Shown here in pieces: positions 20,499-37,548 of a DNA stretch of 64,000 bases. The number at the start of each line of letters is the position of its first letter. Position 1 is the first letter of the stretch. A model generated the notes under the pieces. The model did not search any database and was not told the origin of the DNA. It saw nothing but the letters and a program-made list of their open reading frames with translations. Source of the stretch: an uncultured Actinomycetota bacterium (GTDB lineage Bacteria; Actinomycetota; Humimicrobiia; Humimicrobiales; Humimicrobiaceae); assembly GCA_964578625.1 (NCBI GenBank), contig CAZODQ010000001.1, forward strand, positions 23,401-87,400, in the 5' to 3' direction. Both the position numbers and the translations under genes were made by a program.

Positions 20499-22481
20499 AT
20501 GAAAGTTATATTAATAATACTTATAATTCTATTTCTAGCAATAACATCACTATACGGGATCACTATAATCAACAAAAATAAAAGTATTGACTACGAAGAC
20601 GAATATAGTCTAACAACAGAAGAAAAAAGTGAAGATAGCAAAACAACTTCTCCCGATTCAAAAGTAGAAACTATCGGTGACAATCAGGAAATTCTTAATA
20701 TTGATTTAGATAATATAGGAGCCGATGATGAAGAAAGCAATACTACAGAAGACAAACAGGAAGATTTAACCTCAGACGATGAAAAAACTCCGGAAACTCA
20801 ACAGAACGAGGGGGAGGAAGCTGAAGAAGAAGTTGAGGAAGTTGAAGAAGCCGAGGAAGAAGAATCAGAGGAAGAAGAAAAAATAGAGGATAATACCATC
20901 AGGATCTTCTTAGATGGAGATATGGAGAATGGTATATACCTGGGTGAAACAATATGTGACCAGGAATCAATAGAAGCATATGGTCTTTACGGAGAAGAAT
21001 TTAAAAATACGGGTTTTAAATTTACATGGGAAAATAATGATGTAAATTTCCTTCCAGGTTCAACCCATTATATTTATATATATTTCTATAGTACCGAATT
21101 AGGATGGGACCATATCAGAGAAGAAATAAATTTGCCGGGTGAAAAAGATTGTGAAAGGGACATAATAATCTTTATAGATAAACCACAGGAAAAAACCATT
21201 ACTGAAAGCCTTCAGTTAATTGATGGGTGGACTGTAGACTTGAGAAACGATGAAAGTCCGGGTATAAAAGAAGTAGAGATTTACTTAAACGGACCAAAGG
21301 ATTACGGCAAATCCATAGGCACAATACAGTATGGTATACCAAGATATGATGTAGTAGAATTTTTAAAAAACCAGAGCTATCTTAATAGTGGTTATCGGTT
21401 CGATGAACCAATTGATCTTGAACCCGGGTCCAAGCATACACTATTCATATATGCCTACAGTTCACAAGACAATTCATTCAATTATGAAAAAAGAGAAATT
21501 TACCTGTCAGGAATAAAAGAAGAAAAAGCAATAATTAAAGCTCAAATTAACCAGGAAAAACTCTCTCAAGATAATATCATCGAAGTTACCGGTTGGGCTA
21601 TTAATAAAAAAATTCTAGAGGATTACCTAAAAGAAAAACTAGAGCTTGAGAAGGAAACTACTGAAAGTGAAGATGGATATTCTATAAAAAAGGCAGTATT
21701 TACCTCTAATAGGGACGGTAATAAAAACATTTACAGTATAAATATTGACGGGACAGGAATCACCAGGTTGACCAGTTATTCTGGAAATGATTTTTATCCG
21801 GAGGCATCACAGGACGGACATAAAATTGCCTATGCTTCAGACATTGGAGGCGTATGGCAAATAATGGTCATGGATTGGGATGGGAAAAACAAAAAACAAA
21901 TTACCCATAATAGTTTCCGCTGTGGATATCCCAGCTGGTCTTTCGACGGCAAATATATATATTTTGAAGCTTATATTGACGGAGATTGGGAACTTTTCAG
22001 GATAAACAGCAATGGGACAGGCCAGAAAAGGCTGACCTTTGATTCTAATCACAACGACTGGCATCCAAACGGACATCCATTCAAATATAAAATTATCTAT
22101 GAATCAGGTGTTACCGGACATGAAAACATCTATGTAATGGATCATAATGGTTCAGGAATCAAAAATATATGTGATAGCGGTCCCAGAAGAAGAGTCCCAG
22201 ATGTATCAAACGATGGAAATAAAATAACTTATATGAGGTACTCCGGAGATAATAGTGAAATTTGGATTATGGATTACAGCGGACAAAACGAAACAAGGCT
22301 TACCTCTAATCCCGACTGGGATGGACATCCATCATTTTCCCCGGACGATAAATATATTATTTATGATGAGAAAAAAGGATCTAAAGAAGATTTGATTTTA
22401 ATAGATCTTGCCAGTGGAATAAAGACAAATATAACTAATTCTTCCAGTATTGATGAAGATCCAAGTTTTCTATACCGGTAG
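20499..22481 (+). CDS. Membrane-anchored surface protein: N-terminal TM, poly-Glu/Asp linker, two repeats of an ~85-aa domain, C-terminal TolB-like PD40 beta-propeller
   Basis: 660 aa. N-terminus VILIILIILFLAITSLYGI; acidic low-complexity run EEAEEEVEEVEEAEEEESEEEEK. The C-terminal ~270 aa carry repeated PD40-type blades (FTSNRDGNKNIYSINIDG, ASDIGGVWQIMVMDWDG, FDGKYIYFEA, SNDGNKITYMRYSG, SPDDKYIIYDE). Confidence 0.7.
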   Translation: MKVILIILIILFLAITSLYGITIINKNKSIDYEDEYSLTTEEKSEDSKTTSPDSKVETIGDNQEILNIDLDNIGADDEESNTTEDKQEDLTSDDEKTPETQQNEGEEAEEEVEEVEEAEEEESEEEEKIEDNTIRIFLDGDMENGIYLGETICDQESIEAYGLYGEEFKNTGFKFTWENNDVNFLPGSTHYIYIYFYSTELGWDHIREEINLPGEKDCERDIIIFIDKPQEKTITESLQLIDGWTVDLRNDESPGIKEVEIYLNGPKDYGKSIGTIQYGIPRYDVVEFLKNQSYLNSGYRFDEPIDLEPGSKHTLFIYAYSSQDNSFNYEKREIYLSGIKEEKAIIKAQINQEKLSQDNIIEVTGWAINKKILEDYLKEKLELEKETTESEDGYSIKKAVFTSNRDGNKNIYSINIDGTGITRLTSYSGNDFYPEASQDGHKIAYASDIGGVWQIMVMDWDGKNKKQITHNSFRCGYPSWSFDGKYIYFEAYIDGDWELFRINSNGTGQKRLTFDSNHNDWHPNGHPFKYKIIYESGVTGHENIYVMDHNGSGIKNICDSGPRRRVPDVSNDGNKITYMRYSGDNSEIWIMDYSGQNETRLTSNPDWDGHPSFSPDDKYIIYDEKKGSKEDLILIDLASGIKTNITNSSSIDEDPSFLYR

Positions 22482-22983
22482 TAGACGGCTTTTCCACTTG
22501 GCGTTTAGCTTCATGTTTAAACCTTTTGTATTTTACTGCAAATCTCAACCTAATAGATGAACCAATGGAAATTCCAAGCCATAAAGACCAAATAATATTA
22601 TTGGAAAAGAAATAATAAACAAGGTCTGAGACAGTTAAGTCTGTACCAAAGAACTTAACCGCTATCAGATTAACAGCACCTGTGCCGTTGAGTATTAAAG
22701 CAAGAGCTGGAATAAAACCCACTATTAGAAACACCTTGATATCAAAATAATTCCTTTTAGCTTTGGGTTTCATAGTAAGAATTATTAAAAGCCCGATCAT
22801 AAAACCAATAATAAAAACAATAAAATATCTCAGGAGACTCAAGTAACCAGCAGATATATTATAACCAGCAAAGGCATCCAATATATTATCAAAGTAGGCA
22901 AAGCCCGCATAGTAAAGAATTATGTTTATAAAACTGAATACCGTTAGAAAAACTCTCATTTTCTTCCAGCTGATAATATACAT
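22435..22983 (-). CDS. Small polytopic (about 4-TM) membrane protein of unknown family
   Basis: 182 aa. Paralog of 24939..25418 (shared MR[VI]FL..FSFIN...IIWSLWLGISIGSSIRL-type motifs). Its 3' end overlaps the 3' end of the convergent gene 20499..22481 by 47 nt. Confidence 0.5.
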   Translation of the reverse strand: MYIISWKKMRVFLTVFSFINIILYYAGFAYFDNILDAFAGYNISAGYLSLLRYFIVFIIGFMIGLLIILTMKPKAKRNYFDIKVFLIVGFIPALALILNGTGAVNLIAVKFFGTDLTVSDLVYYFFSNNIIWSLWLGISIGSSIRLRFAVKYKRFKHEAKRQVEKPSTTGIENLDLHQYWKN

Positions 22984-23158
22984 GTATAAATAAACAATTA
23001 GATGTTAGCTCAAAAATATATTAATTTCAATTAACCCTGTAATCTGTTATACTTTTAAACCTGAAAAATATATTTTATTAATTTAATAAATATAATTAAA
23101 TTACTCTTTAATTTTTTAATATTCAAATAAAACCTTTGATATTTAGATATTAATAAGA

Positions 23159-24937
23159 ATGAAAACAGTAACCATAATAACCATAATTTTATTTCTGACA
23201 GCATCAATTTTTCTTGGGATTGTAGTCTTCAAATATATTGGAACTAAAATATTTTCTGATACGGAGATTTCCGAAATAGAGCAAAATATTCCAGAACAGG
23301 ATATTCCGACAGTAGCTGAAGAAAATGAGGAGGAAGTTGAAAAGGAAGTTGAAATAGACACTGAAGATATAGCCGCAGTAGAAATATATCTCGATGGTAA
23401 CAGCGAAAACGGCATCTTTTTAGGAGAGGCATCATACGGAACTACCTCCGAAGAAGCTTCTATTATCTATGGTGAAGACTTTTCAGATTCCGGTTTTCTT
23501 CTTTCTTTAGATAATAAAGGTTATGTTTTTGAACCGGGTTCGATCCACTACCTTTATGTATACACTTCAATACCAAAATATGGGTGGGATTACATCCGTA
23601 AAAAGATTTCGATCCCAGGAGAAACAGACTACGATGATAGTATTCAATTCTCTATAGATGACCCATCACATAATACAATAATAAAAGGAGCCGATAAAGC
23701 CAATATACGTGTATCCGGCTGGTCAGTGGACCTTGATCATTTAGATTCTACCGGTATTGATAGAATAGAAGTATATTTAAACGGGCCAAGGGGCTTTGGA
23801 AAATCCGAAGGTCCTGTGGATTATGGAATTGAACGGTCGGATGTGGCCAATGCATTTCAAAACGCAAATTATACCAATTCGGGTTATTCCCTTTATTTCG
23901 ATGGGAGTCAACTTGAAGACGGGAGCGAAAATACCCTATATATTTATTACTATTCCACCTCTGGTACTTATTCTTTAGCTATGGTGGATTTTAAAATAGA
24001 AGGTGAGGAAAAAGAATCCAATGCTGTAATCTCAATAGAAGATTATGATTTTAATGATCAGATTATAGAAATAATTGGATGGGCTACAAATAAAGATTGG
24101 ATACTGGAAGGTAGACCCCCACGAAGCCTGGACGTAGAATATTCTACTAAAAAAATAGTCTTCACTTCCAATATGAATGGTAATGAAGATATATTCAGTA
24201 TGAATATAGATGGTTCTGAACTTACTCAATTAACAGATTATCCAGGAAAAGATAATTACCCTGCTGTTTCTCCAGATGGGGAAAAAATTGCATATACCTC
24301 GGACATTAACGGCACATGGCAGATCATGGTCATGAACTGGGATGGAACAGAAAAGGTACAGCTTACCCATAATCCCTGGAGAAGCGGATATCCAGCCTGG
24401 TCTTTTGATGGAAGATTTATCTACTTTGAAGCAGCCCCGGAGGGAGATTATGAAATATACAGAATAGACAGCGACGGAAGTAATATGAAACGGCTTACAT
24501 TCAATCCAAACATTGATGACTGGCATCCCTATGGTCATCCTTTCCAATATAAAGTCATTTACGAATCCGGAGCATCAAGAAACGAGGACCTTTACATAAT
24601 GGATTATGATGGTAAAAATATTAAAAGGATTTCTGATATAAATATGAGGAAAAGAGTCCCTGCAATTTCAGTTGATGGAAAATTAATTGTTTTTAGTGAT
24701 AATTCTTCTATCTATACTATGGACAGTAATGGAGAAAATATAAAAAAAATTACCGAAAACCTTGCGAATTGCAGACATCCCGATATCTCACCTGATAATA
24801 ATTATATAACTTTTGAGGGCGGTGCCGAGGGACAGGAAGATATATATATTGTTAATCTTAACGGTTCAAACCCTGTAAAGCTGACTAATTTTCCAGGGAC
24901 TGATTATGATCCCTCTTTTATGTATCAGACACCTTAA
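23159..24937 (+). CDS. Paralogous membrane-anchored TolB-like PD40 beta-propeller surface protein
   Basis: 592 aa. Same architecture as 20499..22481: TM (VTIITIILFLTASIFLGIVVF), short acidic stretch, two ~85-aa repeats (VEIYLDGNSENGIFLGE..., IEVYLNGPRGFGKSEG...), PD40 blades (FTSNMNGNEDIFSMNIDG, TSDINGTWQIMVMNWDG, FDGRFIYFEA, SPDNNYITFEG). Confidence 0.7.
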   Translation: MKTVTIITIILFLTASIFLGIVVFKYIGTKIFSDTEISEIEQNIPEQDIPTVAEENEEEVEKEVEIDTEDIAAVEIYLDGNSENGIFLGEASYGTTSEEASIIYGEDFSDSGFLLSLDNKGYVFEPGSIHYLYVYTSIPKYGWDYIRKKISIPGETDYDDSIQFSIDDPSHNTIIKGADKANIRVSGWSVDLDHLDSTGIDRIEVYLNGPRGFGKSEGPVDYGIERSDVANAFQNANYTNSGYSLYFDGSQLEDGSENTLYIYYYSTSGTYSLAMVDFKIEGEEKESNAVISIEDYDFNDQIIEIIGWATNKDWILEGRPPRSLDVEYSTKKIVFTSNMNGNEDIFSMNIDGSELTQLTDYPGKDNYPAVSPDGEKIAYTSDINGTWQIMVMNWDGTEKVQLTHNPWRSGYPAWSFDGRFIYFEAAPEGDYEIYRIDSDGSNMKRLTFNPNIDDWHPYGHPFQYKVIYESGASRNEDLYIMDYDGKNIKRISDINMRKRVPAISVDGKLIVFSDNSSIYTMDSNGENIKKITENLANCRHPDISPDNNYITFEGGAEGQEDIYIVNLNGSNPVKLTNFPGTDYDPSFMYQTP

Positions 24938-24938
24938 C

Positions 24939-25418
24939 TTACTTGGAATTTTCCTTTTCAGTTTTATCAATTGACATATGCCTGTATACTCTACCAGAAA
25001 AACTGAAGCGTACCGATGAACCTACGGCAAAACCAAACCATAATGACCAGATAGCCTGTCTTGAGAAAAGATAAAACACCATTTCGCTTAACTTTTCACT
25101 TGAGTTGAAAAATTTATTTATAATAAAACCGGTAATAGTACCCTCGGACAGTATAAGACAGATAAACGGAATAATTCCAATAATTATAAGGTTTTTAAAA
25201 CTAAAAAGACTTTTCTCTATATTTAACCGCATTATAAGCATTATACTTACACCCATACAAAATCCGACAATTAAAAGTGCTGTCAGTTTGATATAATTAG
25301 CCGCTGTCGGAGATAAATTCACTGCTCCCAATATTTCCAAAATCTTATCAAAAAAAGAATATATAAGAATATAAAAAATGGTATTAATAAAAGAAAATAT
25401 TATTAAAAAAATCCTCAC
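24939..25418 (-). CDS. Small polytopic membrane protein, paralog of 22435..22983
   Basis: 159 aa. Conserved segments with 22435..22983 (MRIFLIIFSFIN..., AIWSLWFGFAVGSSVRF). Lies 1 nt from the stop of the convergent propeller gene. Confidence 0.5.
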   Translation of the reverse strand: MRIFLIIFSFINTIFYILIYSFFDKILEILGAVNLSPTAANYIKLTALLIVGFCMGVSIMLIMRLNIEKSLFSFKNLIIIGIIPFICLILSEGTITGFIINKFFNSSEKLSEMVFYLFSRQAIWSLWFGFAVGSSVRFSFSGRVYRHMSIDKTEKENSK

Positions 25419-25488: not shown

Positions 25489-27309
25489 CTAAAGCCTCTG
25501 TCCAACACTGCCGAGATAATGAGAGACATAACTAAAAACCGTATGGGCAACAACTGAAGCTCCAGCCGGACTGTAATGCATTCCGTCAACAAGATACTCT
25601 CCCGGATTCTGTGACAGCGGAGTCATTACATCTATAACTACCACCCCATGTTTTGCAGCAATCTGTTTAATTATTTCGTTATATTTTGGATATCCTTCTT
25701 TACCAGACCGATATATAGGACCGATAAGATTAATAAATACCCTGGCACCCAGATTCTTTGCCTTAATGATCAAACCTTCAATATTGTGATCAAATCCCGA
25801 ATATCTGGGACCGACATCATTAGTTCCATAGGCAATTATGATTATATCAGGATGGTATACAGATACAGTACTATCAAATCTTTCATAGCCACCACCTGAC
25901 ATCTCGCCACCCTTTCCACTGGCAATGGTATTGTATTCTGCATATGGATAATTAGCCTCCAGGAGCCCGTCAAACGTTTGTACCCAGTTAGACATTTCTA
26001 TTAAAGAATCGCCCATCGCAACAATAGTCAGGTTAACATTTCCTTTGACATTAAGACTTTTAGACGGCAGCTCAATTTCTCCATTGCCGTCTTCAATTTT
26101 AAAATGAGTGGTAATCGTGCCCCCCGTATTGACCAGGTTATCATTTATCTTCATACTGAAAGTTATTTCTTTTTCCTCTCCCATACCCAGATCTTGTAAA
26201 TCCCATATAAGGCCCCTTATGTCATCACTCCATCTAATTCCTTCTGCAGTACCCGACCTGCTAATATAAGTAGCTTCAGCAGGTATGGGACAAATAACTC
26301 TATAATTTTCCTCTTTCTTATCACCAGTATTTCTAACCATAATTTTTACACCTATGGTTTCACCAGGCCAAAGTTCTCTGCCATTTGTATCATATATATA
26401 ATCTTCCGATGTACTTAAATCAGAAAAAAGACTTAACTCTTCCTCTACCGACTTTTCTATAACTGTTGATCCATATTTTAAAGTACCCTGATTAGTTATG
26501 AGTTCATCACCGTTTAAGTCATCTTTTACCTTGACTTCGAAGGAAAAAGTCCTGGGTTTATTTATTTCTATATTATTAACTTTCCATAATACATAATTAT
26601 CCTTATATTCACCTAACCCGGTGATAGAATTTTCAATTATATTCACATATTCCGATAGATCGCTTCTAATTTCTACATCAGAAGCATCCATATCACCGGT
26701 ATTTTCTACTGTCAGATTATATTGTATAACATCACCCAGCATAACAATGTCGCCGTTTTCATCAATAGCTTCTAATTTGAAATTATTTAGATTAGGACTG
26801 CTTTCAATCTTACTGACCAGATCCGCACCAATATCATCATTAAATGAATCTCTCCCCGCTCCGTATCTAAATTTCACTTTATCCAGTTCAATCAAAGTAC
26901 CATTGTCCAGCGGCTTATCCGCCTCCACTATGAAATTAATGCTGTCTCCTTCATTTCTTTTAACATTTCCAATTTCAAAATCCAGAGTTCTATCATCATT
27001 TGTTAAAGTACTGTTATGGTCCGATGATACAAAAAAAGTATTATCCGGTACCTCAAGTTCTATTACCAAATCCTCTATATTTCTGTTTCCTGTATTCTTA
27101 AAGTTTATTGTGTATGTTATTTCCTCACCGGGTTTTAAATATTCACCCTGATCACTGTATATAAAATTAGATTGTCTATCACCAAAAATTGGTTTGGCAA
27201 GATAAATTTTAAAATAATAAAAGACACCAAATGATATCACAATAAATATGACTATAAGATAAATCCATCTTCTATCACTTTTTATATAATTTAAAAATCT
27301 CTTAAACAT
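25489..27309 (-). CDS. Membrane-anchored protein with DUF11/CARDB-like repeats and C-terminal SGNH (GDSL) hydrolase domain
   Basis: 606 aa. N-terminal TM (WIYLIVIFIVISFGVFYYF). Repeats of the type GEEITYTINFKNTGNRNIEDLVIELEVPDNTFF and GDVIQYNLTVENTGDMDASDVEI. The C-terminal region has GDS-block (VAMGDSLIE), GTND block and a DGMHYS DxxH block of SGNH esterases. Confidence 0.65.
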   Translation of the reverse strand: MFKRFLNYIKSDRRWIYLIVIFIVISFGVFYYFKIYLAKPIFGDRQSNFIYSDQGEYLKPGEEITYTINFKNTGNRNIEDLVIELEVPDNTFFVSSDHNSTLTNDDRTLDFEIGNVKRNEGDSINFIVEADKPLDNGTLIELDKVKFRYGAGRDSFNDDIGADLVSKIESSPNLNNFKLEAIDENGDIVMLGDVIQYNLTVENTGDMDASDVEIRSDLSEYVNIIENSITGLGEYKDNYVLWKVNNIEINKPRTFSFEVKVKDDLNGDELITNQGTLKYGSTVIEKSVEEELSLFSDLSTSEDYIYDTNGRELWPGETIGVKIMVRNTGDKKEENYRVICPIPAEATYISRSGTAEGIRWSDDIRGLIWDLQDLGMGEEKEITFSMKINDNLVNTGGTITTHFKIEDGNGEIELPSKSLNVKGNVNLTIVAMGDSLIEMSNWVQTFDGLLEANYPYAEYNTIASGKGGEMSGGGYERFDSTVSVYHPDIIIIAYGTNDVGPRYSGFDHNIEGLIIKAKNLGARVFINLIGPIYRSGKEGYPKYNEIIKQIAAKHGVVVIDVMTPLSQNPGEYLVDGMHYSPAGASVVAHTVFSYVSHYLGSVGQRL

Positions 27310-27399: not shown

Positions 27400-27780
27400 C
27401 TAATTCTTTATGTTCATTTCAATATCATCACAATCAATATAATTATCACGATAAGTTGCCCTGAACTTTATTAAAGAATTACCGGGAGTGCTGCCCTTAA
27501 GTTTCACAATTAGATTAATCTTACCGTTCCCTTTTATTACATATGAATCACTTACCCACATATATATACCATTACTCAAGCCGGGATACTGATTAATATA
27601 TCCATCAAGGCTTACTCCTTCAAATCCAATATTATCCGGGAGTTCTAATTCGAGAGAACTGATTTTAGCATCATACTCATTGGTGTTTCTTATAATATAT
27701 TCAACAGTAAATTCCTCTCCGATTTCCTTGGTATAATCGTCAACCATATATTCAATTTTGATACTCCTATCCAGATTTAA
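27400..27780. repeat. About 0.38-kb DNA-level repeat (copy 1) encoding the shared DUF11-like C-terminal domain
   Basis: Nucleotide similarity is visible between 27400-27780 and 29013-29395. For example, 27548-27600 cccacatatatataccattactcaagccgggatactgattaatatatccatcaagg matches 29166-29222 cccacatatacataccccggctcaagccaggatcctgatcaatatatccggaagg. Confidence 0.7.
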
Positions 27781-28992
27781 ATAATTAACATATTGATCGG
27801 GTGGAATATAGCTATTAAATTCTACTCTTTTTATGTTATTGAGATTAATCGTTCTCATATCTTCAATTCCGCCCCAGTATCTTACTGCACCCCTATAACC
27901 CGCTTCCGGAATTAAATGCCATTTTGAGGAAGAATTATTATCATAAGGCCATGCAAAAAATAGAACTTCATTTCCCAGGTGTGATTCTATATCCTCCTTT
28001 GATTGGGTGAGTTCATATAAAAACTCATCATCAGTAGCAAGGCCCAATCTTACATGATTTACTGTATGTGATAAAAACTCACATCCATACTCATACATCT
28101 CTTCGATTTCAGGCCATATAAGTATCGGCCTTATTACATCAGTTCTCTTATTAAAATAAGCATTTGTCTTTCTTTCAGCTTCCGTTTCCCCGATTGCTCC
28201 GGTGACCAGAAAAACAGTCATCTTATACCCATACTTTTTAAGAATGGGAAACCCATTGGTGTAAACATCCTGGAATCCATCATCAGAGGTTATGATCACC
28301 GGCCTTTCGGGCAGTGCTTTACCAAAGTCTATATAATTTAAAACATCAGTAAAGGTAATGGTTTCATATCCGTATTCTTTTAATACCTTACACAATCTAT
28401 CGAAATGGCTGGTATACAGTTCTATTGCAGCTCCAATATCATCCTCTATAGCATGTAATCCTATTATTGGAATAAAATTCCCTTCAAAATGCTTAACACC
28501 ATAAACCATTATGCCATAATCAGGACTTGTAAAAGAATCCACTTCGTCTGAAGATATTTCCAGCCTGCACCATGCCAGTATGTCTTCAGTTATCTTATCC
28601 GTTAAAGTCAGAGTGGTATTAAAAGTAATCCTCTCCCCCGCATCCAGAACATCAACATTCCAGCTGGTTTCTTTCCCGTTGGATATAAAGAAATTGTCGT
28701 AAGTAAGGTCGACTTTTACATTGTTTACCTTTATACCGCCGTTATTTAAAACAGTTACATTTACCTCTAATTTTTCACCGGGATATGTGTCACCGCCATT
28801 TATATCCACAAATTCTACAGTGGAACCGGTAAATGACGGAAATAACTCTTCGGCAATACTACTGCTATTATCCCTGCCGCTAATTCCGGCAAGTAAGGAA
28901 CAGCTGACAAGAATCACTAAAATAATTATTATAAAAACGGATAATATAAATATATTAATTCTTTTTTTAGGATTTTTCTTCAGAAACATCAT
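27400..28992 (-). CDS. Polysaccharide deacetylase (CE4/NodB) with N-terminal TM, CARDB-like domain and C-terminal DUF11-like domain
   Basis: 530 aa. CE4 motifs ITSDDGFQD (TFDDG-type) and HTVNH. The C-terminal ~120 aa (GEEFTVEYIIRNTNEYDAKISSLELELPDN...) are about 60% identical to the C-terminus of 29013..30902. Confidence 0.7.
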   Translation of the reverse strand: MMFLKKNPKKRINIFILSVFIIIILVILVSCSLLAGISGRDNSSSIAEELFPSFTGSTVEFVDINGGDTYPGEKLEVNVTVLNNGGIKVNNVKVDLTYDNFFISNGKETSWNVDVLDAGERITFNTTLTLTDKITEDILAWCRLEISSDEVDSFTSPDYGIMVYGVKHFEGNFIPIIGLHAIEDDIGAAIELYTSHFDRLCKVLKEYGYETITFTDVLNYIDFGKALPERPVIITSDDGFQDVYTNGFPILKKYGYKMTVFLVTGAIGETEAERKTNAYFNKRTDVIRPILIWPEIEEMYEYGCEFLSHTVNHVRLGLATDDEFLYELTQSKEDIESHLGNEVLFFAWPYDNNSSSKWHLIPEAGYRGAVRYWGGIEDMRTINLNNIKRVEFNSYIPPDQYVNYLNLDRSIKIEYMVDDYTKEIGEEFTVEYIIRNTNEYDAKISSLELELPDNIGFEGVSLDGYINQYPGLSNGIYMWVSDSYVIKGNGKINLIVKLKGSTPGNSLIKFRATYRDNYIDCDDIEMNIKN

Positions 28993-29012
28993 AGCTTACT
29001 CTTATTTTTAAA

Positions 29013-29395
29013 TTAATCTGTTATTTCCATTTCAATATCATCACAGTTAACATAAACCTCATTTGTAGTCAACCTAAACTTAATAGGTGACTTTCCCGGC
29101 TTGGTACCCCTAAGTTCTACAATTAAATTTATTTCATCTTCTCCCTCAATAACATATGAATCACTGACCCACATATACATACCCCGGCTCAAGCCAGGAT
29201 CCTGATCAATATATCCGGAAGGAATTGTTCCTATAAATTTAATATTATCCGGAAGCTCCAGTTCAAGCGAGCTGATTTTAATGCTTTTTTTATTCTTATT
29301 ACTGATTATATATTCAACGGTAAATTCCTCACCATATTTTCTACTGTAACTATCGCTGTAGTAATCTATTTCCACATTCACGACAGTTTCATTGA
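29013..29395. repeat. About 0.38-kb DNA-level repeat (copy 2) encoding the shared DUF11-like C-terminal domain
   Basis: See copy 1. The encoded peptides share GEEFTVEYII.N.N...KISSLELELPDNI.F....GYI.Q.PGLS.G.YMWVSDSYVI.G...INLIV.L.G..PG.S.IKFR.....Y..CDDIEM.I. Confidence 0.7.
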
Positions 29396-30902
29396 CCTTA
29401 TAAAGTTTTAATGTTTCATCGTATCTATCCCAGGTATAAGTTTTTCCTACCTGTTCGGCATCAAATATGGATAACAATGCATTATTATTGCCTACAAAAT
29501 ATACAGTAATGCCGTCATCCAGAGATTTAATCATATCCTCAACCGTATATTCAGGAACCTTATGAGAAATATACTCTATATTTTTTTCACCATATTCATA
29601 TCGATCTACAAACATTCCTATATTGGTTGATTTCGCCAGAACATATACTTTGGAATTACTCTCCATGTTACTGAAAGCTTCGTCCCAGAATTTGTAAACA
29701 TCCGGGGGCTCCGAAAGATCAAGTTTATTATAATTTTTCATAATAAAGTATAATGGCAGAAAAGTAAAAAATAAGATCAATATGACCATTACAAAATATT
29801 TTAAAAAGTTACTAATTTTCGGGATTTTACTGTTCTTAATCAATTTATCAAAAAGAAATATTGACCTATTTAGTATAAATAACATTCCAAATGCTATATA
29901 AAAAGAAAAAACAATCATGGAATTAAGCAGATAATTACGGAGCGCATGACCTGCGTAAAGAGGTGGTATAATAAAATTTAAAATTACCAGCAAAAATGTA
30001 CAAAGGCTAAACTTTAAATTTTTTCTAATTAAAAAGATAAATCCTATCAACGCTATAATTAGAAGTACGATACCATAACTCTGGTAAACCATATTAAGAT
30101 AATCTTTCAATACCTTGAGGATCAATGAAAGATTTTTATCACCAAAACTTCCTCCATGAAGTTCACCTGTTACTTCCCTCCCCATTATATAATAAAAAAA
30201 TCTCAAAGGAGTGGTTACTCCTCCATAACCTTGAAGGGACCTTATAGGAAGATATAAATATGATAGAAGAGGTAGAATAAAATATAATATACTGAGAAGG
30301 ATTGCCTTAATGCTTTTAAAAATCCGTGGATTTACAATAATTACATATAAAACAATGGCCGGAACCAGAAAAAAAGCAAGAGGATGATTGGTCAAACTTA
30401 AACCGAGACAGAAAGAGAAAAAATATAAATATTTTCTTGTTTTATTTTCTTTATAAATAATTGCCGAAAAAAACAACAAAACTATAAAAAAACTGTTTAA
30501 TGTATCAAATTCCAGCCTATTTGCCACTTCCCAGAAAGGCACAATAAAAGCAAATATCATAGAGCTTATAAAGCTTATAAACTCATTTTTTACCAGTTTA
30601 TTTATTGAAAGAAATAAAAATAATAGGGTAAGCGCACCAAATACTGCAGAAAAAAGATTAAGCCTGTAAGCAAGATCAGCAATAGGTAAAAAAGTGAAAA
30701 GTTTCTCCAATAAGGAGAAGGTCGGATACCCGGTGGGCACCATTAAACTCATTTCAGTAACCTGAAGTGCATACCAGCTGGTATCTCCCCCGATTAATTT
30801 ATGCTCCAATGTGAGTATATAAATAACTAGTGGTATAAGAAAAGAGAAAACCGCAAATATGACTTTTTTCTTACCAATAAGGAATTCTTTGATTTTTTGC
30901 AT
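29013..30902 (-). CDS. GT-C superfamily integral membrane glycosyltransferase (ArnT/PMT-like or DUF2723-like) with C-terminal extracytoplasmic DUF11-like domain
   Basis: 629 aa. About 11 hydrophobic segments in the first ~400 aa, with an early Asp-containing loop (IGGDTSWY) as in GT-C enzymes that use polyprenyl-phosphate sugar donors. The C-terminal soluble domain is shared with the CE4 protein. Confidence 0.5.
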   Translation of the reverse strand: MQKIKEFLIGKKKVIFAVFSFLIPLVIYILTLEHKLIGGDTSWYALQVTEMSLMVPTGYPTFSLLEKLFTFLPIADLAYRLNLFSAVFGALTLLFLFLSINKLVKNEFISFISSMIFAFIVPFWEVANRLEFDTLNSFFIVLLFFSAIIYKENKTRKYLYFFSFCLGLSLTNHPLAFFLVPAIVLYVIIVNPRIFKSIKAILLSILYFILPLLSYLYLPIRSLQGYGGVTTPLRFFYYIMGREVTGELHGGSFGDKNLSLILKVLKDYLNMVYQSYGIVLLIIALIGFIFLIRKNLKFSLCTFLLVILNFIIPPLYAGHALRNYLLNSMIVFSFYIAFGMLFILNRSIFLFDKLIKNSKIPKISNFLKYFVMVILILFFTFLPLYFIMKNYNKLDLSEPPDVYKFWDEAFSNMESNSKVYVLAKSTNIGMFVDRYEYGEKNIEYISHKVPEYTVEDMIKSLDDGITVYFVGNNNALLSIFDAEQVGKTYTWDRYDETLKLYKVNETVVNVEIDYYSDSYSRKYGEEFTVEYIISNKNKKSIKISSLELELPDNIKFIGTIPSGYIDQDPGLSRGMYMWVSDSYVIEGEDEINLIVELRGTKPGKSPIKFRLTTNEVYVNCDDIEMEITD

Positions 30903-30939: not shown

Positions 30940-31278
30940 CTATAAATTAAATATTATGACTCCTGCAATAACCAAAATATTTCCTAAAACCCTTAATCTG
31001 TCAACATCTTCTTTAAGAACTCTCCATGAAAACAACATAACAAAAAAGTAGCTTAATGCAGTAAAAGAATAAAAATTTGAAAAATCAATCACTCTCATAG
31101 TGATTATGGAAAGTATTGGAACCAGTAAAAATAAAAATATGCTTATCAATAGATATTTATTCTTAAAATTATAAATTAAAGGCTTTTTAAAATCTAACCT
31201 GATAGCTCCCATTTTAAGAATAACCTGAGCCAGAGCGACCAGTAACTGGATAGTGACTGCTAAAAAAATATAAAGCAT
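30940..31278 (-). CDS. Small 4-TM DMT/SMR-like membrane protein (ArnE/ArnF-like)
   Basis: 112 aa. ...WRVLKEDVDRLRVLGNILVIAGVIIF. Adjacent to a second paralog and to GT-C and GT2 genes. Confidence 0.5.
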   Translation of the reverse strand: MLYIFLAVTIQLLVALAQVILKMGAIRLDFKKPLIYNFKNKYLLISIFLFLLVPILSIITMRVIDFSNFYSFTALSYFFVMLFSWRVLKEDVDRLRVLGNILVIAGVIIFNL

Positions 31279-31281
31279 ATA

Positions 31282-31656
31282 TCAGACTCCTTCCAGCTTT
31301 TTACTGGACATGGTTATAATAATAACTCCGGACACTATTACAGCGGAACCTATTATTTTCATTAAAGTGATGTCTTCCCCAAATAAAATCTTCCCCAAAA
31401 ACAATGAAAAAAAGTAATTTAAACTTAAGAACGGATATATAAAAGACAGCTGAAATTTTCTATGCAGAATAAGCCAGAATGTAAATTTCAAACCGTAGGT
31501 CAGTATAAGAACAGATAACCAAAGGATAAAAATACTTGAGATATTAAGATTTATACCAATATATTTACCCGCTATTATACTTAATAAACTAATGCTGATA
31601 TTAAGGATGATTATAAGGATATAAAAAAATTTTTTACTGGTGTCTCTAAATTTCAT
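31282..31656 (-). CDS. Small 4-TM DMT/SMR-like membrane protein (ArnE/ArnF-like)
   Basis: 124 aa. ...ILFGEDITLMKIIGSAVIVSGVIIITMS. Forms a pair with 30940..31278, like ArnE/ArnF heterodimers. Confidence 0.5.
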   Translation of the reverse strand: MKFRDTSKKFFYILIIILNISISLLSIIAGKYIGINLNISSIFILWLSVLILTYGLKFTFWLILHRKFQLSFIYPFLSLNYFFSLFLGKILFGEDITLMKIIGSAVIVSGVIIITMSSKKLEGV

Positions 31657-31901: not shown

Positions 31902-32858
31902 ATGATAAAGAAATTATTAGTGGCAATTCCTGCCTACAATGAAGAAGAAAAAATAGGTGAAGTAATACAAAACACCCCAAAAAAAATTGAAGGTGTATCT
32001 AAAGTCCATATACTGGTTATTGATGATGGCAGCACAGATAAAACTGTAAAAATTGCCAGGGGTTTACGTGCAGAAGTTATAAAAAATTATCACAATATGG
32101 GATACGGAGTAGCGTTTGGCAAAGCCCTGCAATATGCAGTGGATCATGACTTTGATTTAATGGTCAGTATTGACGGAGATGCTCAATTTGATCCAAAAGA
32201 TATTCCCAAACTTATTAGTCCGATTATAAAAGATGAAGCCGATCTGGTAACTGCATCAAGATTTATCAATAAAAGCTATTACCCTAAAATGCCTTTATCC
32301 AAATTCTGGGGGAATAAGTTAATGTCAATTTTAATCAGTAAACTGATCGGTAAAAAATTTTATGACGTCTCATGCGGATTCAGAGCATACTCACAAAAAA
32401 CTCTGCTTTCGCTAAATCTTCATGGAAAATTTACTTTTTCTCAAGAAACCTTTATTGACCTGTCATTCAAAGGGCTGAAGATCCTGGAAATCCCTATAAA
32501 GGTCAGATACTTTCCTTCACGAGTTTCAAAAATTTCCTCTAATCTTTTCACATATGGAATAAATGCTCTTAAAATTATTATTGAGACTTACCGTGACTAT
32601 AAGCCGTTTACTTTTTTTTCCTATATTGCCCTCTTCTTTTTTATAATAAGTATCTTTTTCGGATCAATTTTACTGTATACATATATTTCAATAGGATCAT
32701 TCCATCCAAATGTCTGGTCAGGATTTGTGGGAGGTACTTTCCTTTTTATCTCCATTATTTTTTTTATAGTCGGCATATCAGCAGATATAATCAAAAGAAT
32801 AAGAGTTAACCAGGAAGAAATTTTATATCTCTTAAAAAGAAATTCTCAAAGAAAATAA
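31902..32858 (+). CDS. GT2 polyprenyl-phosphate sugar synthase (ArnC/DPM1/GtrB-like) with C-terminal TM helices
   Basis: 318 aa. LVAIPAYNEEEKI...VIDDGSTDKT...DGDAQFD and two C-terminal TM helices (FFSYIALFFFIISIFFGSILLY; FLFISIIFFIVGISADI), the ArnC/GtrB architecture. Confidence 0.75.
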   Translation: MIKKLLVAIPAYNEEEKIGEVIQNTPKKIEGVSKVHILVIDDGSTDKTVKIARGLRAEVIKNYHNMGYGVAFGKALQYAVDHDFDLMVSIDGDAQFDPKDIPKLISPIIKDEADLVTASRFINKSYYPKMPLSKFWGNKLMSILISKLIGKKFYDVSCGFRAYSQKTLLSLNLHGKFTFSQETFIDLSFKGLKILEIPIKVRYFPSRVSKISSNLFTYGINALKIIIETYRDYKPFTFFSYIALFFFIISIFFGSILLYTYISIGSFHPNVWSGFVGGTFLFISIIFFIVGISADIIKRIRVNQEEILYLLKRNSQRK

Positions 32859-33155: not shown

Positions 33156-34553
33156 ATGAAGATATTTCTTTTATTTACTGAGATAAATCAAAAATTCGGA
33201 CCTTTATACTATCAGCATGGGCTGGCTTCTATTTCAGCCTTACTTAAAAAAAATGGAGTCCGATCCATCTCTCTAATACACTTTACCAGGGAACCCAATC
33301 TTAAAAAATGGGAGTCGCATATTAAGGAACAAAAACCAGACTTAATAGGTATTTATTCGACAACAGAGCAGTTTCACTTCATAAAGGGACTTGTCGGTAA
33401 AGTCCCCCGGGGCATATTTACAATTTGCGGAGGACCACACCCCACCTCTTATCCAATGTGCATTGAAGATATTCCACGATTGGATGCAATTTGTATAGGA
33501 GAGGGAGAGTATCCCGTATTAGAACTGGTAAATTCTTTAAAAGAAGGCAGAGATTATAGCAAGATAAAGAATCTATGGGTCAGAAAAGATGGGAATATTA
33601 TAAGGAATAAAACAAGACCGTTTATAACTGATTTAAATGAACTCCCATTTGAAGACCGTGAACTTTTCAATCACCAGAAATCGATTGACAAGTATGGTTT
33701 TGCACAGGTGCGGGTATTAACAACCAGAGGCTGCCCATACCAATGTACTTATTGTGCAAACAGGCAGATAAGTAAATCTCAGCCCGGAAGTTATGTCCGC
33801 TTCCGTTCTGCTGTACATATCATGGATGAGTTAAATTACCTTAATAGAAAGTATAAGTTCAAGGAAATCTTCTTTGATGACGATATTTTTATGATGAATA
33901 GAACAATCCGCAAGAAATTTTGTGAAAGATATCCAATGGAAATTGGCAAACCTTTCGTTTTCAGCGGATATATTAATATTTGCAATGAAGAAATGCTAAA
34001 AGAACTGAGAGAAGCAGGCGGGCGTAGAATCGATTTTGGTGTAGAATCCGGTAATGAGGAACTGCGGCAAAAAATCTTAAAGAGGAATATGACAGACATA
34101 CAAATTTTAGAAACTGCAAACATGGCCAGGAGAATCGGATTTCAGATTAAAACTCTGAACATGGTCGGGCTTCCCGGAGAAACCATTGAGAAACATCTGG
34201 ACACTGTAAATCTGAACAATGAAATAAAACCGGACGTAGCAAGCATATTCATATTCTATCCTTATCCCGGTACAGAATTATATGAATATTGTATCAAAAA
34301 GGGATATTTTAATCCTGATGAACCTCTGCCCAAAGGGTATATTTCACGGAGAAATTCATTACTTGATCTTCCTGATTTTTCTAGAAATGATATCGCGAAA
34401 TGTTTCCAGAGATTTGGGTTCCGTGTTTTTAAGAAGATTTCTGTAATGAAAGCTATTGAATATGCTGTCATATATTCTAAACATGGTGAACTTATTATGA
34501 GGATTACTTCAAAGCTTCGGAATATAATCATTAAGTTACTGCCAGGATTTTAA
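33156..34553 (+). CDS. B12-binding domain radical SAM protein (class B radical SAM)
   Basis: 465 aa. N-terminal cobalamin-binding-like Rossmann region (IGIYSTTEQF...ICGGPHPTSYP...DAICIGEGE) followed by the radical SAM cluster motif CPYQCTYC. Confidence 0.75.
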   Translation: MKIFLLFTEINQKFGPLYYQHGLASISALLKKNGVRSISLIHFTREPNLKKWESHIKEQKPDLIGIYSTTEQFHFIKGLVGKVPRGIFTICGGPHPTSYPMCIEDIPRLDAICIGEGEYPVLELVNSLKEGRDYSKIKNLWVRKDGNIIRNKTRPFITDLNELPFEDRELFNHQKSIDKYGFAQVRVLTTRGCPYQCTYCANRQISKSQPGSYVRFRSAVHIMDELNYLNRKYKFKEIFFDDDIFMMNRTIRKKFCERYPMEIGKPFVFSGYINICNEEMLKELREAGGRRIDFGVESGNEELRQKILKRNMTDIQILETANMARRIGFQIKTLNMVGLPGETIEKHLDTVNLNNEIKPDVASIFIFYPYPGTELYEYCIKKGYFNPDEPLPKGYISRRNSLLDLPDFSRNDIAKCFQRFGFRVFKKISVMKAIEYAVIYSKHGELIMRITSKLRNIIIKLLPGF

Positions 34554-34602
34554 TTTCTTCCCTGATTTAAAATAACTACCTGGTGAGATTTTTTATAGAA
34601 CA

Positions 34603-35643
34603 TCAAATATTTTGATTTTTATGATCATTTGATATTTCCGGTTTTATTCTTTTAGACCTGCCTTCAAAATAGGGTCTTGCAGTATATATAATTCCCCCCA
34701 GTACTCCCATTAGAACTATCATAAACAATATCAGAAGAGAACATAAAGCAGCTTTCTCGTTAGTAACCCCCATAGCTACCAGAATAAAGACCAGAGAATT
34801 TTCCCTCAATCCGATACCGCCAATGGAAATGGGGATCATGGCTATTATTGCCACTATCGGCACAATAAAAATAAATGCGGTCAAGCTTAGGTTTATTCCT
34901 AGGGCTCTGGCTGCTAAAAACCAGTTAAGTATAACTGAAAACTGAAGAAGAAAACTGAATACCAGCACTACGACAAGAGCTTCCTTATACTTTTTAAAAC
35001 TCAACAGGGTCTTATAAACATTAGACAGCTTTTCATTTATTTTACGCATAAATTTAAACTTATTGGAAATCTTACCCAATCCGAAAAAAGAAGGATTGAT
35101 AATAAGGAAAGCTATGATCACAGTTATTACGAAAAATATGACAATTGGAATTATTACCGACCGGTGGCCGATAGCCGTAAATCCTAAAAATAAAGCTATA
35201 ACCGCATAAATAGCTGCGCTTACCACTCCGGAAAATCTTTCAACTATGATCACTGAAACAGATTTTCCCATAGGAATGTCAGCTTTTTTTGAAGCATCAT
35301 AACTCCTGAATACATCTCCTCCTATACTGGTAGGTAAAAAATTATTAAAAAAAGAGCCAATAAGAACTGTAACACTCAATGAAGCAGTACTTAATCTTAC
35401 ATCCTGCGTATTTAAAAGAACCTTCCATCTCACAGCAGTTATATAGGTCCCCAGAGCATGAGTGGAGAGCGAAAGTAAAAGTAAGACTTTATTTGATGAT
35501 TTCAAAATCTCAATTATACTGGAGAAATCTTTCATTTGTGTCTTAACCAGAAAAGCAATAAGGGAAGCACTGATTATGACTCTGGCTAAAAGAAGTATTA
35601 TCTTCTTATTTTTTATGTAAAAAGAGACGATCCTATTTTTCAT
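34603..35643 (-). CDS. Flippase-like polytopic membrane protein (LPG_synthase_TM / PF03706-like)
   Basis: 346 aa, about 8 TM. Central NFLPTSIGGDVFRSY motif characteristic of this family. Paralogs at 41009..42025 and 50496..51581. Confidence 0.55.
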   Translation of the reverse strand: MKNRIVSFYIKNKKIILLLARVIISASLIAFLVKTQMKDFSSIIEILKSSNKVLLLLSLSTHALGTYITAVRWKVLLNTQDVRLSTASLSVTVLIGSFFNNFLPTSIGGDVFRSYDASKKADIPMGKSVSVIIVERFSGVVSAAIYAVIALFLGFTAIGHRSVIIPIVIFFVITVIIAFLIINPSFFGLGKISNKFKFMRKINEKLSNVYKTLLSFKKYKEALVVVLVFSFLLQFSVILNWFLAARALGINLSLTAFIFIVPIVAIIAMIPISIGGIGLRENSLVFILVAMGVTNEKAALCSLLILFMIVLMGVLGGIIYTARPYFEGRSKRIKPEISNDHKNQNI

Positions 35644-35666
35644 TTTTAATCGAATCAGCTGTTTAA

Positions 35667-36410
35667 TTATTTTCTAAATTTGGCAACTCTTGCGGGTACT
35701 CCTGCAGCTATAGAGAAAGGCGGAATATCTTTTGAAACTACAGCGCCTGCTGCAATAATGGTATCTTTTCCAATAATAATACCGTCAAAAATCAAAGCGC
35801 CTGCACCTATCCAGCAATTCTTTTTTATCTTTATGCCATAAGAAGGCTTTTCCTGCTCAGATATGGGAACATCTATTCTGGAATACTCATGTCCACCACC
35901 AATAATATAAACATATGCGGAAATTAATGTATTTTCACCAATGGTTACATTACTTGCCGAAATTATCTCACAGTTAAATCCTATAACTACATTTTTTTCC
36001 AGTACTATATCGCCATTTTTACAGCTTAATATACTGCCTCTGCCTATAAAAATATTTCTTCCTATGCTAATTCCATTGTTGTCCAGTCCTTTGGCATCGA
36101 GAACACAATAATCATCTATTACTACATTATCTTCAATGGATATTTTATGAGGATGCCTTATAGTTACAGACTTCCCAAAACTGACTCCCTTCCCTACTTT
36201 CTTAAAAAGCAAGGGAAAGAATAAATTTCTAAAAAAGATACCAATAGCTCCAGGCATGTCCTGAAACAGTGTAATTATCAATTCATATTTCAGTAAACTA
36301 AAAAAACCTTTTTTCCCTACAAATAAATCTATATATTTGGCAATTTTTGACCTATCTCTGGCAAAAAGCGTTTTCTGTATCTTGTCTTCATATTTTTCTA
36401 TTTCAATCAA
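35667..36410 (-). CDS. Hexapeptide-repeat (left-handed beta-helix) sugar O-/N-acetyltransferase
   Basis: 247 aa. Tandem hexapeptide repeats (IGRNIFIGRGSILSC, VVIGFNCEIISASNVTIGENTLISAYVYIIGG, IGAGALIFDGIIIGKDTIIAAGAVV). Confidence 0.75.
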   Translation of the reverse strand: MIEIEKYEDKIQKTLFARDRSKIAKYIDLFVGKKGFFSLLKYELIITLFQDMPGAIGIFFRNLFFPLLFKKVGKGVSFGKSVTIRHPHKISIEDNVVIDDYCVLDAKGLDNNGISIGRNIFIGRGSILSCKNGDIVLEKNVVIGFNCEIISASNVTIGENTLISAYVYIIGGGHEYSRIDVPISEQEKPSYGIKIKKNCWIGAGALIFDGIIIGKDTIIAAGAVVSKDIPPFSIAAGVPARVAKFRK

Positions 36411-36536
36411 CTCCTTTTCCGATAATAAAGAATAAGCTCTAAAAAATTAAATAAAACACTTCTTTCCAGGACGAGTAAAACTGCAATCGGTTTAATAAAT
36501 TAAAGCTGCCTTCTTCTTTAGCTGAAATATCTTTTC

Positions 36537-37535: not shown

Positions 37536-37548
37536 TATAAGTTCATAT

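Follow-up and report, generated by a model that had tools for sequence, protein, structure and literature searches.

A C-terminal β-sandwich module shared by adjacent GT-C glycosyltransferase and CE4 deacetylase genes of uncultured Actinomycetota

Introduction

How two enzymes with unrelated catalytic folds come to end in the same domain, and what that domain might do for both, is the question raised by a locus in the window, the whole 64,000-nucleotide stretch of DNA analysed here (contig CAZODQ010000001.1 of an uncultured Actinomycetota bacterium). An earlier note on this DNA described a carbohydrate esterase family 4 (CE4) polysaccharide deacetylase beside a glycosyltransferase of the GT-C type, and claimed that their C-termini resemble each other; both open reading frames (ORFs) are confirmed as that note gave them. 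We find that the shared tails derive from one old, retained duplication. In our reading of the profile comparisons, they represent an undescribed domain family of ~120 residues that lies outside all Pfam and NCBIfam families and derives very remotely from the group of DUF11/CLIPPER-CARDB (E-set) domains. By analogy with a characterized GT-C enzyme, we see an even chance that this module serves both proteins for recognition or targeting and would place the GT-C and the CE4 enzyme on the same acceptor or envelope feature.

Two unrelated enzymes end in the same module

The two genes and their shared parts are as follows.

27400..28992, minus strand: CE4 ORF, 530 amino acids
29013..30902, minus strand: GT-C ORF, 629 amino acids
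27403..27777, minus strand: CE4 C-terminal β-sandwich module, residues 406-530; the part similar by BLAST is residues 410-530, 27403..27765 (BLASTP, hidden Markov model)
29016..29390, minus strand: GT-C C-terminal β-sandwich module, residues 505-629; the part similar by BLAST is residues 509-629, 29016..29378 (BLASTP, AlphaFold2)

BLASTP aligns the two C-terminal regions without gaps, with 74 of 121 residues identical (61%) and 77% positives (E = 4e-43), in agreement with the ~60% identity over ~120 amino acids and the motif string quoted in the earlier note. No similarity was found between the remainders of the two proteins (next best BLASTP E = 0.59), and one hidden Markov model (HMM) matches both tails at E about 1e-50. 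The similarity begins exactly at the start of the predicted β-sandwich (GT-C strand 509-515) and is carried by two unrelated catalytic folds, as expected of a separable module. The underlying DNA also remains similar, as had been noticed by eye: 27403..27765 and 29016..29378 are 67.8% identical over 363 nucleotides (73, 78 and 53% at codon positions 1, 2 and 3), and sensitive blastn reports 72% over 315 nucleotides (pairwise E = 1.4e-44). Megablast between the two module DNAs gave no match.

A six-frame search of the whole window revealed no third copy of the module, and in this search the GT-C module weakly matched the first DUF11 repeat of a neighbouring SGNH protein (31% over 94 amino acids, E = 7e-4). 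A role as a C-terminal secretion or sorting signal was considered and rejected, as the carriers, an 11-transmembrane (TM) protein and a lipoprotein, are both already membrane-anchored. Because the relatives of this organism are Actinomycetota, the two enzymes are better called extracytoplasmic than periplasmic, the label used previously.

Distribution and conservation of the module

A pattern-limited scan of genomes, including incomplete metagenome-assembled genomes (MAGs), yielded 26 loci, nearly all in Actinomycetota MAGs and most with the same gene pair bearing a module on each protein, and a scan of metagenomes added 77 loci with 117 module copies. The full sample comprises 163 copies (46 + 117) at 105 loci. 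In all of them the module is C-terminal and present once per protein, and a third architecture was not seen; the metagenome copies comprise 63 on GT-C proteins, 50 on CE4 proteins and 4 contig-end fragments. The check proposed in the earlier note, for the module on other envelope enzymes in related genomes, thus returned solely these two carriers. Searched exhaustively with the HMM, 1.84 billion representatives yielded 55 at E ≤ 0.001, and all strong matches that could be classified are TMEM260-like GT-C or PgaB/PplD-like CE4 proteins. A word-indexed search with the module alone had returned only 10 fragments, a misleading impression of rarity that was corrected by a full-length GT-C search and by the exhaustive profile search.

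The relatives are labelled Actinomycetota or Ca. Hydromicrobium, and the module is restricted to a lineage of uncultured Actinomycetota related to Ca. Hydromicrobium. The same locus type also appears in a MAG labelled Pirellulales (L024, CAYNXW010000173.1) and with a protein labelled Chloroflexi (P0111); otherwise the labels are uniformly Actinomycetota. These occurrences are probably binning or labelling noise, with horizontal transfer the less likely alternative.

Gene order was counted for the 70 GT-C genes with module that have at least 1.8 kb of downstream sequence. A CE4 gene with module follows in 50 of these 70, a CE4 gene lacking the module follows in none, 3 have the CE4 gene elsewhere in the locus, and 17 have no CE4 gene within the fetched locus. 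This strongly conserved adjacency supports the functional link between the two enzymes that the earlier note had proposed.

Thirty positions are at least 85% conserved with the same residue in both carrier classes, and no position is fixed differently between the classes. Conservation stands out most in the stretch SLELELP...GYIxQxPGxSxGxYMWVSDxY...INL...FR. GT-C copies that have no CE4 gene nearby keep 24 of the 30 conserved positions, including this hallmark stretch.

Two loci deviate from the usual gene structure. On a 158-kb contig (ERZ25039515 contig_48798; L028:4500-9500) the same locus is present with the genes for a family 2 glycosyltransferase (GT2), the GT-C and the CE4 protein each split into several short ORFs, which looks like uncorrected assembly indel errors rather than pseudogenisation. 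On another contig (JACIXO010000314.1; L019:2-1888), which is 1.9 kb long, a single ORF joins GT-C, module, a linker of a few residues and the CE4 core from about residue 165, leaving out the signal peptide and CARDB domain of the CE4 protein. This ORF is a genuine fusion of GT-C and CE4 or else an artefact of assembly. Junction queries in the protein database and the metagenomes, and a screen of the 77 further metagenome loci, did not find another fusion; one candidate (P0190, 78% coverage) proved to be the N-terminal half of an ordinary CE4 protein on a frameshift-ridden contig.

Age and direction of the duplication

For the module pair in the window, the NG86 method gives dN = 0.28 and dS = 1.8 (nonsynonymous and synonymous divergence, respectively), LWL85 gives dS = 0.84, and dN/dS is 0.16-0.3. 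The same codon is used at 44 of the 74 identical residues versus 35.5 expected from codon usage, and third-position identity is 0.53 versus 0.31 expected from composition. Given these dS values and this modest codon sharing and third-position identity, the synonymous sites are close to saturation, and the module protein is under purifying selection.

In a neighbour-joining (NJ) tree of modules, the close relatives of the window form separate CE4-type and GT-C-type clades. The modules of the most divergent genomes (L021, L022 and L024) likewise split by carrier, although the root of this tree is uncertain. Paralogs within a genome have a mean identity of 0.61, versus 0.57 for cross-class comparisons between genomes. 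The data reflect one old, retained duplication and neither recent shuffling nor gene conversion. The suggestion that the tails might have arisen by recent domain shuffling is therefore not upheld, given the dS range, the separate paralog clades in close relatives and the lack of excess identity within genomes.

GT-C carriers have diverged more than CE4 carriers, with the TM core falling to 31% identity to that of the window versus at least 49% for CE4 carriers. This wider divergence, together with the lineages in which GT-C occurs alone, suggests by parsimony that the module may be ancestral to this GT-C subfamily and was then copied to CE4.

Fold of the module and its relation to DUF11

An AlphaFold2 model of the module, built from a 12-sequence alignment, is all-β with 11 strands (predicted local distance difference test score, pLDDT, 91.6), and the modelled fold appears to be an E-set-type Ig-like sandwich. 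Its structural neighbours are MG domains, cohesins, TRAP-beta, CLIPPER and CBM2-type modules, all of which score alike. A profile search of the module against Protein Data Bank sequences gave spurious polyubiquitin matches only.

The earlier note had called the domain DUF11-like. A remote relationship is indeed indicated: hhalign aligns the module with SGNH repeat 1 at 50% probability (E 1.7e-4, 92 columns), and rescans with Pfam (E ≤ 10) place sub-threshold DUF11 matches on 10 of 44 copies (best E 0.0025). Similarly, the weak tail of the exhaustive HMM search (E 3e-5 to 9e-4) consists mainly of DUF11/CARDB repeat proteins in which, where checked, the matched stretch falls on DUF11 or CARDB domains. 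Membership in DUF11 is not supported. Neither window protein has a Pfam match on the module at E ≤ 1, and none of these 44 copies reaches the PF01345 gathering score (24.6 bits). Moreover, the genuine repeats mostly miss the module while finding one another: the SGNH DUF11 repeats and a separate N-terminal domain of the CE4 protein mostly match mutually at about 97% probability (97-98%, E 1e-10 to 1e-12; the exception is repeat 1 against the CE4 N-terminal domain, at 75.5%, E 2.4e-5), whereas the module matches repeats 2 and 3 and the CE4 N-terminal domain at less than 6%.

Many, although not all, CLIPPER domains contain a Lys-Asn isopeptide bond with a catalytic Asp/Glu (PMC12617251). No Lys conserved at 90% or more was found across the 44 module copies, making such a bond unlikely in the module as judged from its alignment.

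The CE4 carrier

Three further regions are recognized in the CE4 protein.

27778..28500, minus strand: CE4 catalytic domain of PgaB/IcaB/PplD type, residues 165-405 (PF01522)
28591..28794, minus strand: N-terminal CARDB/DUF11-type Ig domain, distinct from the shared module, residues 67-134 (Pfam CARDB 1.5e-5, DUF11 5e-4)
28900..28992, minus strand: lipoprotein-type signal peptide with lipobox LVS-C31, residues 1-31 (sequence motif)

The PF01522 match scores 81.3 bits over residues 226-368, and the TSDDG, SHxVNH, IIGLH and GYRGAVRY motifs are at least 95% conserved in 62 CE4 orthologs. The closest solved relatives are PplD (6DQ3), followed by PgaB, BpsB and IcaB. NCBIfam scores of 72 bits for PgaB (cutoff 322) and 44 bits for IcaB (cutoff 248) assign the protein to the PgaB/IcaB/PplD subgroup, yet predict that it is an ortholog of neither PgaB nor IcaB. 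PplD itself is a membrane-anchored, extracellular CE4 enzyme that deacetylates the N-acetylglucosamine of a wall-polysaccharide linkage unit (PMC8807736).

By motif inspection, all 20 CE4 orthologs examined carry a hydrophobic stretch followed by an [ASG]-like residue and Cys, and the protein is probably anchored to the membrane from outside as a lipoprotein and not by a TM segment. Its N-terminal CARDB-like domain evolves faster than the core (50-67% versus 77-89% identity among close relatives). This domain, unmentioned in the earlier note, matches SGNH DUF11 repeat 2 with an hhalign probability of 97.7% (E 1.7e-12). By these profile matches, the CE4 protein shares true DUF11 character with the SGNH protein through this N-terminal domain and not through the C-terminal module.

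The GT-C carrier

Preceding its module, the GT-C protein is predicted to contain two regions.

29724..30902, minus strand: TM core of about 11 helices with an invariant GGD loop (D39), residues 1-393 (Pfam TMEM260-like/PMT_2, Foldseek)
29388..29705, minus strand: extracytoplasmic α/β (Rossmann-like) domain between TM11 and the module, residues 400-505 (AlphaFold2: β-α-β-α-β-α-β-β)

The protein matches PF11028 (TMEM260-like) with 82.0 bits versus a cutoff of 24.2 over residues 42-190, and also PF13231 (PMT_2); NCBIfam assigned no family. A full-length AlphaFold2 model (pLDDT 89.2, predicted template modelling score 0.80) shows ~11 TM helices up to residue 393, an α/β domain at 400-505 and the strands of the sandwich at 509-627. 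Foldseek matched this model to STT3/PglB, ArnT, ALG9/12, DPY19, Emb and Pmt. Among solved structures, human TMEM260 (9RQL, E 8.4e-22) is its sole relative by sequence, and the donor-aligning D52 of TMEM260 aligns with D39 of the GGD motif; GGD is at least 95% conserved in 65 GT-C orthologs. As judged from these motifs, both the GT-C and the CE4 protein have intact catalytic motifs.

Cryo-EM of TMEM260 revealed 11 TM helices, a luminal Rossmann-like (Rl) 'palm' and tetratricopeptide repeat (TPR) 'fingers' that grip the acceptor peptide, and mutation of the TPR asparagine ladder reduced activity to about 10% (bioRxiv 10.64898/2026.03.17.711096). The α/β domain of the GT-C protein matches the Rl 'palm' in position, and in the model the module takes the place that the acceptor-recruiting TPR has in TMEM260, a correspondence that is positional only. 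The mannose-contacting His67 of TMEM260 is replaced by Val in the window GT-C (residue 54, about 30741..30743, minus strand), which hints that the donor might be a sugar other than mannose.

Genes surrounding the pair

The following neighbouring genes are relevant to a possible pathway.

25489..27309, minus strand: SGNH/GDSL hydrolase with TM anchor and three DUF11 (CLIPPER) repeats, downstream of CE4 (Pfam DUF11 1.1e-26, Lipase_GDSL_2 4e-17; NCBIfam DUF11-type repeat)
30940..31278 and 31282..31656, minus strand: two half-size EamA membrane proteins, an ArnE/ArnF-like candidate lipid-linked sugar flippase (Pfam EamA)
31902..32858, plus strand: GT2 with C-terminal TM segments, a candidate polyprenyl-phosphate sugar synthase (PF00535)
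20499..22481 and 23159..24937, plus strand: TolB-like PD40 β-propeller proteins with an N-terminal TM segment and acidic linker
22435..22983 (overlapping the PD40 gene by 47 nucleotides) and 24939..25418, minus strand: small multi-TM proteins with no family match

The order divergent GT2, EamA pair, GT-C with module, CE4 with module, SGNH-DUF11, and small TM proteins with TolB-like PD40 proteins is conserved. Pfam finds three DUF11 stretches and a GDSL/SGNH domain in the SGNH protein, consistent with the multiple DUF11 copies previously ascribed to it, and its gene adjoins CE4 in relatives as well. The EamA pair lies immediately upstream of GT-C, an arrangement conserved in relatives, and has NCBIfam matches to ArnF (2e-5) and ArnE (1.2e-9), both below cutoff. 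Orthologs of the GT2 are 78-87% identical and occupy the same position in relatives; the best NCBIfam matches of this protein, all below cutoff, are AglJ, dolichyl-phosphate hexose transferase, PpgS (1e-18) and ArnC. Such sub-cutoff matches are taken to indicate enzyme class, not orthology. The gene set would correspond to the known logic of lipid-linked extracytoplasmic glycosylation, of which the Arn system is an example. All three protein classes of an Arn- or Gtr-type system (polyprenyl-phosphate sugar synthase, small flippase and GT-C) have candidates here, and these are syntenic in relatives.

Farther out, 20499..25418 holds a tandemly duplicated two-gene unit made of a PD40 protein and a convergent small multi-TM protein, and both units adjoin the SGNH gene in several relatives (L002, L004, L008, L014 and L016). 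On the other side, 33156..39493 is kept beside the operon and encodes a B12-binding radical SAM protein (HpnJ-like), an MprF-type flippase-like membrane protein, a WcaF-like acetyltransferase, a radical SAM/SPASM protein, a second GT2 and an SDR epimerase/dehydratase. The second GT2 fits ArnC far better than the first (250 bits, below the 529 cutoff). The genes in this interval suggest an unusual modified sugar. An Rfam scan of the 64-kb window found nothing.

Possible functions of the shared module

Three observations lead us to view the module as a recognition domain common to both enzymes: it occupies the position of the TMEM260 acceptor domain, the same residues are conserved in both carrier classes, and these residues persist in GT-C proteins with no CE4 gene nearby. 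The proposed sequence of events would be as follows. The module would have been the ancestral C-terminal part of one TMEM260-like GT-C subfamily, and long ago one copy would have been duplicated onto the C-terminus of the next gene, encoding the CE4 lipoprotein, with both copies under purifying selection since. The divergent GT2 might load a sugar, probably an N-acetylhexosamine (HexNAc), onto polyprenyl phosphate, the ArnE/F-like pair would flip the lipid-linked sugar, and the GT-C would transfer it to an extracytoplasmic acceptor such as a wall glycopolymer or surface protein. The CE4 enzyme would then strip the N-acetyl group outside the membrane, and both modules would bind the same acceptor or envelope feature, thereby bringing both enzymes to the same molecule.

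More speculatively, the locus might represent a bacterial TMEM260-type branch in which the TPR 'fingers' were replaced by an Ig-like recognition domain that CE4 later borrowed. Together with the GT2 and the ArnE/F-like pair, this would constitute a complete, compact pathway that adds a HexNAc and then de-N-acetylates it, leaving an amino sugar on an actinobacterial envelope component. We advance this fuller proposal tentatively, as a possibility on the doubtful side.

Several points weigh against these interpretations. The HMM alignment between GT-C and TMEM260 spans residues 26-240 only, and TMEM260 is not among the Foldseek matches listed for the GT-C model. The structural neighbours of the module do not discriminate among functions, such that the module might bind sugar, bind protein or be purely structural. 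The GT2 and flippase assignments depend on sub-cutoff family matches, and the direction of transfer, from GT-C to CE4, comes from parsimony beside an NJ tree of uncertain root.

The strongest alternative is that the module is a protein-protein association device, whose sandwiches bind one another directly or are bridged by a shared partner (such as SGNH-DUF11 or PD40) to form one GT-C/CE4 complex that immediately deacetylates the transferred sugar. Identical conserved residues in both classes would be expected of such a device, cohesins and MG domains (both protein-binding sandwiches) are among the best structural matches, the genes are tightly adjacent, and the single in-frame ORF joining GT-C, module and CE4 core might be a Rosetta-stone fusion. 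However, 17 of the 70 GT-C genes with module have no CE4 gene in the fetched locus and yet keep most of the conserved positions. For the solo cases derived from genomes, the pattern-limited scan of incomplete MAGs detected no further locus with the module in the same assembly. The fusion itself was seen once, on a very short contig, and not again in the protein database or metagenomes. We therefore regard a dedicated complex as unlikely, albeit worth serious consideration.

A less favourable case can be made for a passive structural cap or spacer that has no specific ligand and was retained for folding well outside the cell. The fold is generic, and Ig-like domains including DUF11/CLIPPER commonly serve as stalks of surface proteins (PMC12617251). 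A spacer would nonetheless be oddly placed, because the module lies at the extreme C-terminus and not between membrane anchor and catalytic domain, and in CE4 the spacer position is already held by the faster-evolving N-terminal CARDB-like domain. The conservation of 30 positions across both classes, including a long loop-plus-strand motif, the low dN/dS and the absence of a conserved Lys for a stabilizing CLIPPER isopeptide bond also argue against this role, which we consider improbable.

A further idea is that the module is itself the substrate, with the GT-C glycosylating a conserved Ser/Thr in the module and/or in the DUF11 repeats. TMEM260 O-mannosylates IPT (Ig-like) domains (PMC10214176), the locus is rich in Ig-like domains, and the Ser in the conserved PGxSxG loop is nearly invariant. 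This reasoning is purely analogical. The module consensus shows no evident match to the sequon proposed for TMEM260 (P-x5-P-x3-G-P-x2-G/A-G-G-x2-T/S), Val replaces the mannose-contacting His67 in the window GT-C, and the adjacent CE4 points to an N-acetylated glycan sugar rather than protein O-mannose. We consider this substrate role very improbable. Finally, recent shuffling or ongoing gene conversion, which adjacent genes on the same strand and detectable DNA similarity might suggest, is effectively refuted by the high dS, the megablast null, an arrangement found in dozens of species-level genomes with carrier-specific clades in close relatives, and within-genome identity barely above that between genomes.

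Comparison with known systems

That enzymes acting on one substrate may share a binding module is already known from carbohydrate-binding modules (CBMs), S-layer homology (SLH) domains and cohesin-dockerin pairs, and the conceptual advance is modest in this respect. What is new is the domain family itself, its restriction to two carriers (a polytopic TMEM260-type GT-C and a CE4 lipoprotein), and the (positional) replacement of the TPR. The locus also provides a clear example of an accessory domain duplicated between a polytopic transferase and a lipoprotein hydrolase within one operon. The unannotated family is a candidate addition to Pfam, and the isolated module of 120 residues might serve as bait for identifying the acceptor on which both enzymes act.

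DUF11/CLIPPER (PF01345; PDB 9IFR) and CARDB (PF07705) domains form tandem stalk repeats in adhesins, whereas the module is a single C-terminal copy on enzymes. It falls below every Pfam threshold and lacks the conserved isopeptide Lys, and it differs from DUF11/CLIPPER in having a family-specific, highly conserved GYIxQxPGxSxG loop. Among CE4 relatives, none of PplD, PgaB and IcaB is described with the C-terminal sandwich or the N-terminal CARDB-like domain of the window protein. The C-terminal domain of PgaB has a different fold, a β/α-barrel.

TMEM260 (PF11028; 9RQL/9RQM/9RQN) resembles the window GT-C in its ~11 TM helices, an α/β domain outside the membrane, a distal non-catalytic domain and the retained Asp of GGD. 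The distal domain is a TPR there and a β-sandwich here, and the deacetylase operon partner has no counterpart for TMEM260. TMEM260 moves mannose from Dol-P/polyprenyl-P-mannose to protein Ser/Thr with the luminal D441 as catalytic base; the residue correspondence established for the window GT-C covers the donor-aligning Asp. Bacterial TMEM260-like (DUF2723) GT-Cs have essentially no assigned function, and in the literature searched the one listed paper naming DUF2723 concerns the human enzyme.

The Arn system for lipid A aminoarabinose (ArnC GT2, ArnD CE4 deformylase, ArnE/ArnF, ArnT GT-C) uses the same four protein classes that are clustered in the window. The likeness extends to below-cutoff matches of the EamA pair to the ArnE/ArnF models and of the GT2s to ArnC, and Foldseek also matches the GT-C model to ArnT. 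ArnD works on the cytoplasmic face, ahead of the flipping step, whereas the window CE4 is of PgaB/PplD type with a lipoprotein signal and is predicted to be extracytoplasmic. The GT-C family and the acceptor differ as well, and Actinomycetota are not known to have lipid A.

The logic proposed for the window operon is found within the same phylum, in the pathway that adds galactosamine (GalN) to mycobacterial and corynebacterial arabinogalactan (PpgS GT2, Rv3779/Cgp_0658 GT-C). In that pathway, the GT2 makes polyprenyl-phosphate-HexNAc, the lipid-linked sugar undergoes flipping and deacetylation, and the GT-C then attaches it to the wall polymer (PMC9671496). The flippase and deacetylase are unidentified there and no shared module is described, whereas the window holds candidates for both activities beside the GT-C. 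If the compact HexNAc pathway proposed above holds true, it would indicate what kind of extracytoplasmic deacetylase and flippase might serve the mycobacterial arabinogalactan-GalN pathway.

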